From positions 1-21,275 of the forward strand of contig JASFYY010000117.1 of NCBI GenBank assembly GCA_045046875.1: DNA of 21,275 nucleotides, given 5' to 3'. The position numbers were made by a program, and so were the translations under genes. Below the pieces are notes generated by a model that was not told the origin of the DNA, did not search any database, and worked only from the letters and a program-made list of their open reading frames with translations. Below, piece by piece: positions 1 to 21,058 of the stretch. The DNA is from Verrucomicrobiota bacterium. GTDB lineage: Bacteria; Verrucomicrobiota; Verrucomicrobiia; Verrucomicrobiales; DEV007. Position 1 is the first letter of the stretch. Each line of letters opens with the position of its first letter.

Positions 1-817
1 GGTTTTGCCGCAGATGCAAGACTGTCAGCAGCAGTGAACTGATGAAAATAGCGGTGTAGATAGGGGAGAAATCCTCAAAAATACCAAAGCTCCCGCTGAT
101 AAAAAACAAAGCCGAAGTCAAAAAGAGCAAATCGCGATTGATGTTGCGCCACCACGAAGAAGCGGCGCCGGGGTCGTTTTTTTGATCTGAATGTTTTTCG
201 CGGGCGCTGATGAGCAAGCAATTCAACACACACAACGAGGCAAAAAGCAGCACCGGTGGCAATACCTCGGCCGGGTGAACAAAAGCTTCATGCCGCATGG
301 CATCCACCCCTAGCGCCACTCCTCCGGCAAAAACCAAACCACAGGCAAACTCCTTGGCCCGTAGGGGTTTCAAGCGTGGAAACAAACGCACAAAAGCAGC
401 AAAATACAGCCACACCAAGACCGCGAGTATGGAGCCTGTCACTATCAAATCCAGGGGCAAAAAAGTGAGTGTGAACACGGCGGCTATCGGTAACATCACC
501 GCCAATAATAGGATGAAAAATTGCTGGTGCTGACGGGCAAATACATGTCGCCGAGTAGCTGTTTGCCAATCTTTTTGACGCCAGCCATCAATCAAACGAT
601 CAAAAATATAGATCGACCAAACCGCAAGAAACAGCACCGTATAAACCGGAAAGGCCACTGGCGAATCAAAGGCCTTGGAGAAAGCCCACAACCACACCAC
701 AGCCACCACTGGCGCGTCCAGACTGCACAGATTGGCATACAGCCACCACGGCTGGCTGGCTGGCTGGGTACTGTCCGAATCAGCTTCAATAGAGCCTGTA
801 AGAAAAGTAGATTTCAT
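1..817 (-). CDS. Polytopic membrane protein, UbiA prenyltransferase-like hypothetical (3' end runs off the window)
   Basis: Not in the ORF track. Hand translation from ATG at 817-815 is open to position 1: MKSTFLTGSIEADSDSTQPASQPWWLYANLCSLDAPVVAVVWLWAF...LFLAVWSIYIFDRLIDG...ATRRHVF...KEFACGLVFAGG. It has several hydrophobic segments. The IYxxDRLxD Asp motif resembles the first Asp-rich motif of UbiA-type proteins. Confidence 0.75.
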   Translation of the reverse strand, partial: MKSTFLTGSIEADSDSTQPASQPWWLYANLCSLDAPVVAVVWLWAFSKAFDSPVAFPVYTVLFLAVWSIYIFDRLIDGWRQKDWQTATRRHVFARQHQQFFILLLAVMLPIAAVFTLTFLPLDLIVTGSILAVLVWLYFAAFVRLFPRLKPLRAKEFACGLVFAGGVALGVDAMRHEAFVHPAEVLPPVLLFASLCVLNCLLISAREKHSDQKNDPGAASSWWRNINRDLLFLTSALFFISGSFGIFEDFSPIYTAIFISSLLLTVLHLRQN

Positions 818-879: not shown

Positions 880-1638
880 ATGAAAGAAGTCAAGCAGATC
901 AAGCAAGCTGGCCCGGTTCTGACATCCTGGTTGTTGTTTTACGCCCTTGTTTACGCCGTTTTCCATATCCTGCCAGTATTTCTGAAAGTCGAAGTCAAAA
1001 GCGGAATCCGACTCGGCGACCTGATGGATCTCAGCACCCCGCTGGTGATGGTTTTTCTAGTTTATAAATTATATAAAATACTGTCCTGCCAAGCGGAATC
1101 GGCGCTTCCAGGCACCAGCCGGCAAGGCAGTAAAATAGTTCTGATTTTGGGAGCGGTCATTTTTGTGGAGGGACACGGCATGCATCTTGCCGCCAATACC
1201 GTCAACCGTCTGATTGATCGTTCTGCCGCTTCGAAACTCTATGAGCTGAATTATTTTTTCGATGAAATACTCGGTCATCTGCTGTGGGACGGCGGCATTG
1301 TGATATTATCGATAGGTTTGATCGCGGTTGCTTTTAAAGTAAAAAATGCGGCCGGGGCCAAACCCAATTTACGCCGGCTGGTCATCGCTTCGCTGATTTA
1401 CGGCCTTACTTATTTCATCAACGCTATCGAAGGCCAGACTGTTATGCTGACTTTGCCAGGTGCAGTGTTGATTCCGGCAGCCATTTTGTTGCTGGCCAAT
1501 AAAAAACGCATGGAGCTGACTTCCCATGCCTGCCTGTTGTTTTTTGTTGTAGCTTACGGTTGGGCCGTTTGCCTTTTTGTCCTGTGGTATTGGTGGCAAG
1601 GCGCGTTCTATCAATTCAGCGACTTGGGCTGGCTTTGA
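880..1638 (+). CDS. Multi-pass membrane protein resembling the CLN6 (ceroid-lipofuscinosis neuronal 6) family
   Basis: 252 aa with about 7 hydrophobic segments. Motifs LGDLMDLSTP, IFVEGHGMHLAANTVNRL, YELNYFFDEILGHLLW and GLTYFINAIEGQ are colinear with motifs recalled from human CLN6. The CDS is well supported; the family call is by eye. Confidence 0.7.
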   Translation: MKEVKQIKQAGPVLTSWLLFYALVYAVFHILPVFLKVEVKSGIRLGDLMDLSTPLVMVFLVYKLYKILSCQAESALPGTSRQGSKIVLILGAVIFVEGHGMHLAANTVNRLIDRSAASKLYELNYFFDEILGHLLWDGGIVILSIGLIAVAFKVKNAAGAKPNLRRLVIASLIYGLTYFINAIEGQTVMLTLPGAVLIPAAILLLANKKRMELTSHACLLFFVVAYGWAVCLFVLWYWWQGAFYQFSDLGWL

Positions 1639-8508: not shown

Positions 8509-9843
8509 ATGAGATTGCCTACTTCGCCACCAGATCTAAATGAAGCCTTTAGCACGGCTGATGGAATGTTCAAAATTATGAGAGCCGCGAATGAAGAATG
8601 CACGAGAACAGATCGCTATCTTCATTGGGATGAGTTGCGCCATCGGAAACCTCCTAAGGGACTTACAACTACGGAATGGTGGGCCGGCTTGAAAATTAGG
8701 CGTTCATCAGGTGAACAACAAATCCCGTTGGTTGATAAAAATGGGAGTGCTTTCAGTTTTTCTCTGACGCCTGGCATGTTTGAGAAGCTTCATTTAATAG
8801 ACCTAAAATGTGGAGGGTCTGTTGAGGGGCCGGAGCCTGTAACCAACCATGACACACGTGATCGATATTATATATCATCTCTCGTCGCTGAGGCTATTAC
8901 TTCCAGTCAGTTGGAAGGCGCTGCTGTAACGCGGTCTGTTGCTAAAGAGATGCTACGTACTGGCCGAAAACCAACAGACAAAAGTGAGAGGATGATTCTG
9001 AACAATTTTCTTACCATGCAGAAAATTTCTGGATGGAAAAATGAAAGACTAACTCCCAAATTAATCCTGAAGATTCATAAAATGGTGACTAGGGGGACTT
9101 TAGGAAATCCAGATCAAGAGGGGCGATTGCGTAGGGAGGATGAGGACGTAAGGGTGGAAGACGATCAAACCGGCGAGGTGATACACATGCCGCCGCACGC
9201 GAAAGAATTACAAAGTCGATTAGAAGCTATGTGTACATTTGCCAACGACAATAAAATGCAGGGGTTCCTCCACCCAGCTATTCGGTCAATCATACTGCAT
9301 TTTTGGCTGGCATATGATCATCCATTTGCAGACGGGAATGGTCGTACTGCAAGAGCGATATTTTATTGGTCGATGTTAAAACACAAATTCTGGATGTTTG
9401 AGTTTATTTCAATATCTCAGCAAATATTGGAAGCTCCTATGAAATACTATAGGGCTTTTCTTTATACTGAGACTGATAGTAATGATTTAAATTATTTTAT
9501 TTTCCATCAGCTGTCGGTAATCCAACAAGCCATAGAGAAACTACATACGTATATTCAACGGAAATCGGATCAGATTGCGGAAATGCAACAGCTAATGGGG
9601 CGTATGCAAGAGTTCAATCATCGTCAGCTAGGGTTACTGCAATATGCTTTAAGGAATCCGGATGCCATTTTCACAGTGGCAAGTCATCAAAATAGTCATC
9701 GGGTCGCCACTCAAACTGCACGCAATGATCTCATTGCCTTGGTGAAGCATGATTTACTAGCAAGTCATAAAAGAGGTAATGCTAATCTCTATCATCCAGT
9801 GAAAGATTTGCAGAACAAGTTAAAGGCTTTAAGGAGGAATTAA
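8509..9843 (+). CDS. Fic family protein (class II, N-terminal inhibitory helix) with probable C-terminal wHTH
   Basis: Canonical HPFADGNGRTAR motif. SSQLEG fits the (S/T)xxxE(G/N) inhibitory motif. The C-terminal HRVATQTARNDLIALVKHDLL resembles a wHTH recognition helix. Confidence 0.95.
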   Translation: MRLPTSPPDLNEAFSTADGMFKIMRAANEECTRTDRYLHWDELRHRKPPKGLTTTEWWAGLKIRRSSGEQQIPLVDKNGSAFSFSLTPGMFEKLHLIDLKCGGSVEGPEPVTNHDTRDRYYISSLVAEAITSSQLEGAAVTRSVAKEMLRTGRKPTDKSERMILNNFLTMQKISGWKNERLTPKLILKIHKMVTRGTLGNPDQEGRLRREDEDVRVEDDQTGEVIHMPPHAKELQSRLEAMCTFANDNKMQGFLHPAIRSIILHFWLAYDHPFADGNGRTARAIFYWSMLKHKFWMFEFISISQQILEAPMKYYRAFLYTETDSNDLNYFIFHQLSVIQQAIEKLHTYIQRKSDQIAEMQQLMGRMQEFNHRQLGLLQYALRNPDAIFTVASHQNSHRVATQTARNDLIALVKHDLLASHKRGNANLYHPVKDLQNKLKALRRN

Positions 9844-18918: not shown

Positions 18919-20280
18919 ATGGATCTACTCAGGCAGGATCCGAAGATCAGAAAAACGACCCATCCGCATTATGGTCGCTGGGTGAGCCATTGGCTGAAGG
19001 CGGGGGGAGAGAAGAATGAAGCGGCGACGCGAAAGTTTTTCGAAAATCTGGGTAGAAAATCGGATTTGCAGGATTGGCACTATATTCAAGCAGTCGAGGC
19101 GGTTGAATTGTGGGCAAAAAAAATGGTGTCATTAGACTGGGCGGAGAATTTTGATTGGCAGGGGCTCGCGGCTCAGGCAGCAGACTTGGGGAGTTCGCAC
19201 CGCACCCTCTACCGAGAGACCAAGCCTGCGTAATCCCGCACTCGTATGAATGCCGCGAGTCTGCCCTGCTCGAGTTCCAAGGACCGTCTTCCGGCTAAGG
19301 GGGAAAAAGAGGCCATTGAAGACATGGTTCAAGAGAGCCAAAAAGCGATTCGATTGGCGGGCTTGGCTGTGATGACGGAAAAAACTTATATTTCCTGGAT
19401 CGTGAGGTTCTCCAAATTCAGGCTGCGACGTTTGCAGCAGAGTTTATGGGAGTTTAATCCCAAATCTCTCAGCCTCTACCTGGAATAGCTCGCTTTGGAA
19501 AGGCAAGTTGCTCCCTCAACTCAGAAACAAGCACTCAACGCCTTGGTATTATTGGCTAAAAAAGTGTATGGCATCGAAGAGCTTGAGCTCGATTATAAAC
19601 CGGCCTGGAGAGGTCATCGACGCCCGCCCACAGTGATGACCCGGGATGAAGTGAAAAAAGTGATCGGTTTTTTGGAGGATCCGTGGAAATTAATTGCACA
19701 ATTGATGTATGGCAGTGGTTTGAGGACGTGTGAGGTTTTAAGATTGAGAGTCAAGGACATCGATTTTGGTCAAGGAGCCATCACCATTCACGACGCAAAA
19801 GGGGGCAAGCACCGGATGGTTCCATTGCCCAATGTTTTAGAGCCGCATTTGAAGGCTCATTTGCGTCTCGCCGAAGAAAAACATCAAGCTGATTTAATAA
19901 TGGGGCATGGGGAAGCGCATTTGACTGAATCCCTGCGGCGTAAGTATCCTAATGCGGCAAAGGAATGGCTCTGGCAACATGTTTTTTCTTCCGCCAAACT
20001 GTGTGCCCATCCGAGAACAGGGCACGTGGCACGACACCATTTGCATGAAAAATCACTGGGTCGCCAAGTGAAAGCGGCAGCAAACAAAGCACGAATTCCA
20101 AAAAGAATCTCCTGTCACACGTTTAGGCACTCCTTCGCTACACATCTTCTTGAGAGTGGTGTGGATATCCGAACTGTGCAAGATTTGTTAGGGCATGTCG
20201 ATGTGTCCACAACGATGATTTACCTGCATGTGATGAAAAGGCCAGGAGCCGGAGCACCGAGTCCGTTGGATTTTACCTAG
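18919..20280 (+). pseudogene. intI: Long-form integron integrase interrupted by in-frame TAA (19231-19233) and TAG (19486-19488)
   Basis: The three ORFs share one frame. TEKTYISWI and LE*LALERQVAPSTQKQALNAL form the SAM-like domain. Catalytic motifs are present: YGSGLR, DAKGGKHR, HTFRHSFATHLL, LLGH, TTMIY. The integron-specific insertion LRRKYPNAAKEWLWQHVF...HPRTG..RHHL is present. Confidence 0.92.
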
Positions 20281-20407: not shown

Positions 20408-20460
20408 ACTGTCCAGAATAATATGTTATTGCGGACAGTTCCATATTATACTGTTAGGAC
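20408..20460 (+). other. attI site; crossover G|TT at 20453/20454
   Basis: GTTAGGAC (20453-20460) is the exact reverse complement of the attC R'' GTCCTAAC (21059-21066). Upstream lies the imperfect palindrome ACTGTCCAGAATAATATGTTATTGCGGACAGT. Confidence 0.75.
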
Positions 20461-20464
20461 TAAA

Positions 20465-21058
20465 ATGATCAACGGCGACGACTTCTTGGATCTCGATGGC
20501 AATATTCCCGATGAGAATATTCATATTGCTATCGAATACCCCATTCCTTCGTGCGGCTATATTTCTTTCGCTCAAGATGTGTCTTGTGAGCAAGAATATA
20601 TTATTTTTGAAGCTCTAGCTGGCGTGCCTACGCATCCATCACCGCTATTTCCGCCCAAAGGCTTCCCGAAGAACGCTTCTAGGCAGACTATGTCTCGATA
20701 TTACCAACCAGTGATCACTTCTGAATCAGCAGAAATATGGACAGGCTACGACTATATCTTATTGAAGGATTATCAAAAAACCTATTCTCATCGGGAGCTG
20801 ATCCAGCCCGAATGTCTTCCTGTATCAAATCATGGGTGGATGGTTCGACCTGATTTTCACACATCTTCCCACCTAACCGTAAGCGAGATCGAAGACGCTT
20901 TAGAGAAAGCAAGAATAGCGCCGGGGCCGCTATTGAATACAGTTCTTCTAGCGCTGAGAGCTCTCACAACGAGTTTTGGAGAACGCTGCAGAATTGTCTT
21001 CTGGTTTGAGACATTTGAGGATGTAACTCCAGCGATGGTAGACAGGTTATACGAATAG
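20465..21058 (+). CDS. Gene cassette 1: hypothetical protein (197 aa) resembling a phage-associated uncharacterised family
   Basis: The ATG lies 11 nt after the crossover and the stop abuts R''. Motifs NIHIAIEY, YIIFEALAGV, PKGFP, FHTSSHLTVSE, RIVFWFE. Confidence 0.8.
   Translation: MINGDDFLDLDGNIPDENIHIAIEYPIPSCGYISFAQDVSCEQEYIIFEALAGVPTHPSPLFPPKGFPKNASRQTMSRYYQPVITSESAEIWTGYDYILLKDYQKTYSHRELIQPECLPVSNHGWMVRPDFHTSSHLTVSEIEDALEKARIAPGPLLNTVLLALRALTTSFGERCRIVFWFETFEDVTPAMVDRLYE

Follow-up and report, generated by a model that had tools for sequence, protein, structure and literature searches.

The protein encoded at 880..1638 on the plus strand of the window, by which we mean the whole 21,275-nucleotide stretch of Verrucomicrobiota DNA that was analysed, is genuinely, though distantly, related to human CLN6, the Batten-disease enzyme. 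To judge from the sequence, it keeps the metal and nucleophile core of the human protein and does not keep the side that would read the retained glycerol. The gene is present in a single copy in the genome, begins with ATG and encodes 252 aa with seven transmembrane helices. Its GC content (0.48) and GC3 (0.55) are close to those of its neighbours and of the genome (0.51). A second allele (P0191) carries six substitutions, none of them at core residues. A promoter and terminator scan was uninformative. An earlier note, made from the letters of the window without database searches, had proposed a bacterial homologue of CLN6 by setting motifs of the two proteins side by side. All five bacterial motifs that it quoted are present in the translation, and the human motifs that it gave are those of the CLN6 plasmid sequence in PMC13692256, compared by eye.

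We regard the homology as very likely. The Pfam scan by which the note proposed to check it returns CLN6 (PF15156) as the sole match up to E=1, over residues 94–238 at E 1.1e-5, though the score of 25.4 bits falls below the cut-off of 27. Six motifs are colinear with human CLN6 from TM2 to the C-terminus. Five of the 131 homologues scanned singly score above the Pfam cut-off, P0002, P0007 and P0019 (42–53% identical to the query protein) among them, and 19 match CLN6 at E<=1e-4. The match widens to TM2–TM7 in P0004, P0007 and P0014, which are 46–48% identical to the query. One homologue, P0027, has DUF4386 above the cut-off instead of CLN6. In alignment A2, CLN6 appears at E<=0.01 in 46 of 127 rows and any other family in one row at most. 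PF15156 was found in none of 14 control genomes, and the NCBIfam scan assigned no family to the protein. The homologue described in the earlier note is real, and it is far from alone: a word search found 36 relatives and a full profile search found 791 prokaryotic representatives at E<=1e-3. Animal CLN6 appears neither in the word search nor among the best 150 of the 791 profile matches. The Atlas neighbours are mostly bacterial clusters, one of which carries CLN6 on 12% of its members (TM 0.85), and some prokaryotic members are already auto-labelled CLN6 in databases. Two of the homologues, P0179 and P0157, have eukaryote-looking N-termini together with the prokaryote-type TM3 motif and are possibly protist members bridging to animal CLN6.

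The AlphaFold2 model (pLDDT 89.7, pTM 0.89, from a 32-row alignment) has seven long helices, at residues 10–34, 45–72, 78–109, 118–151, 164–185, 188–208 and 217–240, in agreement with the count of about seven membrane segments first made from the sequence. The protein has no sequence match among solved structures, and Foldseek found none that matches the model at E<=1e-3. The best VIA-align Z of 9.8 is to generic helical bundles over residues 1–159, which argues neither for a new fold nor for the absence of a likeness to the CREST superfamily. Prediction of two copies with four Ca2+ gives a homodimer at 0.87 versus 0.42 for the best control, with 98% contact agreement between runs and pLDDT 89. 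Among solved proteins, 20 of 30 homodimers and 1 of 23 monomers get as far as this mark, though such figures are only a rough guide for a job of this kind. The predicted interface is formed by TM2, TM3 and TM4. Within it, E97 contacts the H99 of the partner; on this model the two residues, both of the prokaryote type, would have a structural function. The placing of basic residues in loops 62–86, 152–168 and 207–217 agrees with an N-in, C-out orientation, the one that has been measured for human CLN6. The charge-based assignment is weak, since loops 35–46 and 107–124, assigned to the outside, also hold three basic residues each. With the N-terminus in and the C-terminus out, all of the core residues would lie on the outer, periplasmic side.

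The earlier note took the biochemical activity of CLN6 to be unclear, and that is now out of date. In the portions available of two preprints of 9 October 2026 (bioRxiv 10.64898/2026.10.07.757350; PMC13692256), human CLN6 is reported to be a Ca2+-dependent epimerase that converts R,S- to S,S-glycerophosphoglycerol (GPG) and belongs to the synthesis of S,S-BMP. According to the same portions, the D59A, D131A, D173A, E174A, H178A and E227A mutants do not rescue, and R62, H127 and Y182/Y223 are also required; R62H/C, Y182A/Y223A, D59A and D131A each abolish or cripple the activity (10.64898/2026.10.07.757350; PMC13692256). The first preprint, in the part available, models the protein as a homodimer and gives QM/MM support for a 1,3-phosphoryl migration via phospho-His178 between two Ca2+, with E298 inside the active-site region, the S-glycerol that is retained on phosphorus facing D59, and R62 also touching GPG. 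Human CLN6, the only characterised member, migrates the phosphate without hydrolysis (10.64898/2026.10.07.757350). A word search of the main text of either preprint finds no mention of bacteria or prokaryotes. That the protein binds metal and is catalytic, as was guessed from the bacterial sequence, agrees with these reports, and the DE..GH and EGQ residues picked out at that time are essential residues of the human protein.

Conservation was scored over 146 near-full-length homologues (215–330 aa, out of 183), none of which is an animal CLN6, and human numbering was read by eye from the plasmid text in PMC13692256 rather than from a tool alignment. The top five of the 252 columns are D128, E184, E129, H133 and N106, equivalent by this reading to human D173, E227, E174, H178 and D131. 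They cover five of the six human residues whose alanine mutants fail. D128, E129, H133 and E184 occur jointly in 143 of the 146 homologues, and together with H102 in 132. Four of these residues lie in two motifs: E97-G-H99-G-M-H102-L-A-A-N106 in TM3 (1168..1197, +), where H102 is human H127 and N106 human D131 by eye, and D128-E129-x3-H133-x3-D137 in TM4 (1261..1290, +), which takes in human D173, E174, the proposed nucleophile H178, and Y182. The E184-G-Q element at the end of TM5 (1429..1437, +) matches human E227, and its glutamate is present in 146/146. In TM2 the acids D47 and D50 (1018..1029, +) fall by eye on human D83 and H86; they are D/E in 143/146 and 128/146, and D50 is possibly a metal ligand peculiar to prokaryotes. 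Finally, the C-terminal segment (1603..1620, +), with the family motif G-F-P-E/Q-F-S, places Q245 at human E298. Of the 146 homologues, 137 have E or Q in this column (95 of them E), and the query has Q.

The position of D131 is N106 in the query, and the column is N in about 141/146 and D in 2. Read by eye, the positions of D59 and R62 in TM1 are variable, and columns 22–35 of that helix hold no conserved acid or base among the 146 homologues (at column 29, 8 of them have D/E and 40 have H). Y182 becomes D137, in a column with H in 64, D in 42 and Y in 8, and Y223 becomes I180. H99 is His in 97 of the 146. The suggestion that the bacterial protein would make a tractable model stands for the fold and the catalytic core; it does not necessarily carry over to the reaction, as the human substrate contacts are not kept.

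The immediate neighbourhood of the gene says little about its substrate. Next to it is a divergent UbiA-like gene of the LA_0991 type (2..817, −). Since 32 of the 37 genomes of the order have a match to this gene, set among other neighbours, its adjacency is probably incidental, and we rejected a functional tie between the two. The UbiA-like gene is near-core in the order, and in all five other genomes of the genus that were searched, serS comes after it. The CLN6-like gene here is an orphan, and its genome lacks the kinase-ThiL-UbiA module that is described below for some relatives. The window also carries DUF1501 and PSD1/PSCyt genes, by which the host would be a bacterium of the PVC type. 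A GH114 glycoside hydrolase gene at 1707–2553 (−) is split into a 203-aa frame and a 69-aa downstream piece, and is one 282-aa ORF in the close relative G005. A Fic-domain gene at 8509–9843 (+) has a GC3 of 0.39 and was probably acquired horizontally. A tyrosine recombinase at 18919–20280 (+), which we take to resemble an integron integrase, has its N-terminal part in separate ORFs. After it, at 20423–21058 (+), comes an ORF of lower GC that matches nothing in Pfam and may be a cassette.

The distribution of the gene is sparse. It is matched in 2 of 61 genomes, its own included, and the second (G003) has an internally deleted remnant. In G005 only about the first 35 bases are left, joined to what is window position 1700. 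Given these remnants in sister species, the gene was once present in the genus and was lost at least twice. A sample of the phylum gives 7 matches in 301 genomes, again including its own; four are a divergent subfamily and two are spurious. The divergent subfamily (L141–L144) keeps H102, N106, D128, H133 and E184. In it, G-x-G-M-H-D and D-D/N-x2-G-H replace the usual motifs. In a quick tree of 90 rows the query sits on a long branch; its clade of 21 rows (SH-aLRT 98) also includes Ignavibacteriales, Zixibacteria and Stahlbacteria, among others. Horizontal gain of the gene is likely, and we leave the donor unnamed because the tree is a quick version and the branch of the query is long.

The lipid clusters around some of the relatives are a better guide to the substrate than the uninformative locus studied here. 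We collected 46 GTDB loci and scored 43, leaving out three in which ORF clustering had missed the CLN6-like gene. A POTRA-less Omp85 barrel is encoded directly upstream in 19 of the 43, many of them kin; a YegS-type lipid kinase is nearby in 8, a ThiL-like gene in 7, a DGGGP-synthase-like UbiA gene likewise in 7, and an SPT-like gene, whose best PDB match is serine palmitoyltransferase (E 1e-98), in 2. Lipid clusters containing CLN6-like relatives occur in three lineages (Aminicenantia, L006 and Zixibacteria), and most relatives lie outside such clusters. The Aminicenantia cluster has the kinase, the ThiL-like gene and the DGGGP-synthase-like UbiA, with the SPT-like gene in two GTDB loci. The Zixibacteria cluster has a thioester reductase, kinase, UbiA, PEP-dikinase, GNAT and PS decarboxylase. 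We likened this GNAT to bacterial ceramide synthase and rejected the assignment, as it has no PDB or NCBIfam match. At L002 (8992–16716), L015 (2309–6568) and L165 (4617–8823), a YegS-type kinase and a UbiA-type transferase stand with a ThiL-like kinase or PEP-dikinase, in some with an SPT-like gene; these clusters suggest phosphorylation, pyrophosphorylation and transfer of a lipid alcohol.

None of these associations is obligate. Across 151 Aminicenantia genomes, the CLN6-like profile is found in 16 (one weak, three partial), the module UbiA in 8, of which 5 (the centre genome among them) are shared with the CLN6-like gene, and the Omp85 gene in 22, of which 4 are shared. The module UbiA is present in only 3 of 38 further genomes with a CLN6-like gene, namely those of the 46 loci after leaving out six with UbiA in the locus and two that were weak or duplicate, and the kinase-ThiL-UbiA module is also found without the CLN6-like gene. 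We therefore rejected an obligate tie to the module, and likewise one to the Omp85 barrel, given the 4 of 22 Omp85-positive Aminicenantia genomes. Against that barrel, the genome studied here has matches of 25–29% only. The association with lipid clusters is neither necessary nor sufficient, and the context points no further than to chemistry on the head groups of membrane lipids, as an optional extra.

The reading that we tentatively prefer is a metal-assisted phospho-His enzyme of the outer face, acting on a lipid-linked glycerophosphate head group by flipping or exchanging it. The phospho-His core, which is common to this reading and to the epimerase and hydrolase alternatives below, we take jointly to be quite probable. 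On the predicted fold and dimer and the charge-based topology, the enzyme would be a homodimeric seven-helix protein of the inner membrane with an acidic pocket open to the periplasm. A divalent metal, probably Ca2+, would be bound by D128, E129, E184, N106, D47/D50 and the Q245 segment, and would position a phosphodiester. H133 would attack the phosphorus, as in the QM/MM model of the human protein, and hold the phosphoryl group covalently while one alcohol departs and another returns. Because the positions of D59 and R62 are non-polar or variable here, we infer that the part retained on phosphorus would be a lipid (acylglycerol, ceramide or alkyl chain). The head group would then be flipped or exchanged on a membrane lipid, not on free GPG. 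The broader proposal that a 1,3-phosphoryl migration at the outer face lets the prokaryotic proteins invert the stereochemistry of glycerophosphate, on GPG or on lipid head groups, is one that we hold as doubtful, if conceivable.

It is unlikely that the protein carries out the GPG epimerase reaction proper, turning R,S-GPG and S,S- (or R,R-) GPG into one another in the periplasm with D50, D137 or H29 replacing D59 and D131. The catalytic core, the H127 equivalent and the C-terminal motif are kept, the query has six carboxylates over eight pocket positions, and R,S-GPG arises in bacteria via PG deacylation. However, the query differs at D59, D131, R62, Y182 and Y223, all of which are needed in the human protein; the asparagine at 106 and the lack of a conserved basic or acidic residue in TM1 extend this to most of the 146 homologues; and we know of no BMP pathway in bacteria. 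Of low probability as well is that water resolves the same phospho-His intermediate, making an outward-facing lipid phosphodiesterase or phosphatase for head-group removal, lipid-phosphate recycling or phosphate scavenging. Hydrolysis is the simplest outcome of such an intermediate, as in PLD and PAP2; the kinases that adjoin some relatives would supply mono- and diphosphates of lipids; and the patchy, dispensable distribution suits an accessory catabolic enzyme. Yet the only characterised member migrates the phosphate rather than hydrolysing it, and in genomes without the CLN6-like gene no hydrolase was seen to stand in for it beside the Omp85 or module genes.

We consider it improbable that the likeness to CLN6 is convergent or compositional, or that the protein merely binds metal or lipid in the membrane and has no catalytic activity. 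The query does score below the Pfam cut-off, 112 of the 131 homologues miss E<=1e-4, and the Atlas matches listed include no eukaryotic CLN6 cluster; but there are six colinear motifs and five homologues above the cut-off, no other membrane protein in the Pfam scans matched CLN6, and conservation peaks precisely at the human essential residues. A ceramidase-like zinc amidohydrolase, with a site made of H99, H102 and H133 on two adjacent helices and with SPT-like and GNAT neighbours at some loci, is very improbable, as H99 is His in only two-thirds of the homologues (97/146) and, in the dimer model, contacts E97 across the subunit boundary, and the top-conserved residues are carboxylates like those of the CLN6 Ca2+ site.

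In the literature that we searched, mostly outside the subscription journals, there is no account of prokaryotic CLN6 relatives. New here are the conservation ranking, the match to E298, the dimer prediction, the gene losses in sister species, and the survey of lipid clusters, limited as it is. No solved structure matches CLN6, and what is proposed for its mechanism comes from modelling; a bacterial homologue that is compact and has the same His/acid core is therefore a candidate both for structure determination and for trapping phospho-His. Its natural substitutions (D131N, and D59 and R62 missing) are a test of the residues that decide the substrate and the stereochemical outcome. If the stereo-inverting reading is true, bacterial lipids would have an interconversion of sn-1 and sn-3 glycerophosphate that is free of dehydrogenases, and lysosomal BMP synthesis would owe its stereo-inverting step to an enzyme inherited from prokaryotes. 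Prokaryotic enzymes that flip the handedness of glycerophosphate would also bear on the reports, in PMC13400652, of bacterial phospholipids that are heterochiral and of a G1P source yet to be identified.

Among known systems, the likeness to other lipid enzymes is looser than that to CLN6. PLD/cardiolipin synthase and sphingomyelin synthase/PAP2 are lipid enzymes that work through phospho-His. They share with our protein a proposed covalent phospho-His on a lipid phosphodiester, as an analogy of chemistry only, with no sequence or fold match. Members of the CREST superfamily (alkaline ceramidase, PAQR) have seven helices with intramembrane His and Asp. The CLN6-like protein has the same general layout, but its core is D-E-x3-H plus E; Pfam finds nothing of CREST in the query, and the top fold matches listed contain no CREST chain. 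Compared with human CLN6 (UniProt Q9NWW5), the bacterial protein has N for D131, Q for E298, D for Y182 and I for Y223, lacks D59 and R62, and has D50, E97 and H99 in addition. Its TM3–TM4 loop is about 20 residues shorter, it does without the long N-terminal tail, and its gene is outside the CLN8/CLN5/BMP context of human CLN6. The two share seven helices, a predicted homodimer, the order and spacing of the motifs and the C-terminal P-E element, and they are identical at D173/E174/H178, E227 and H127.
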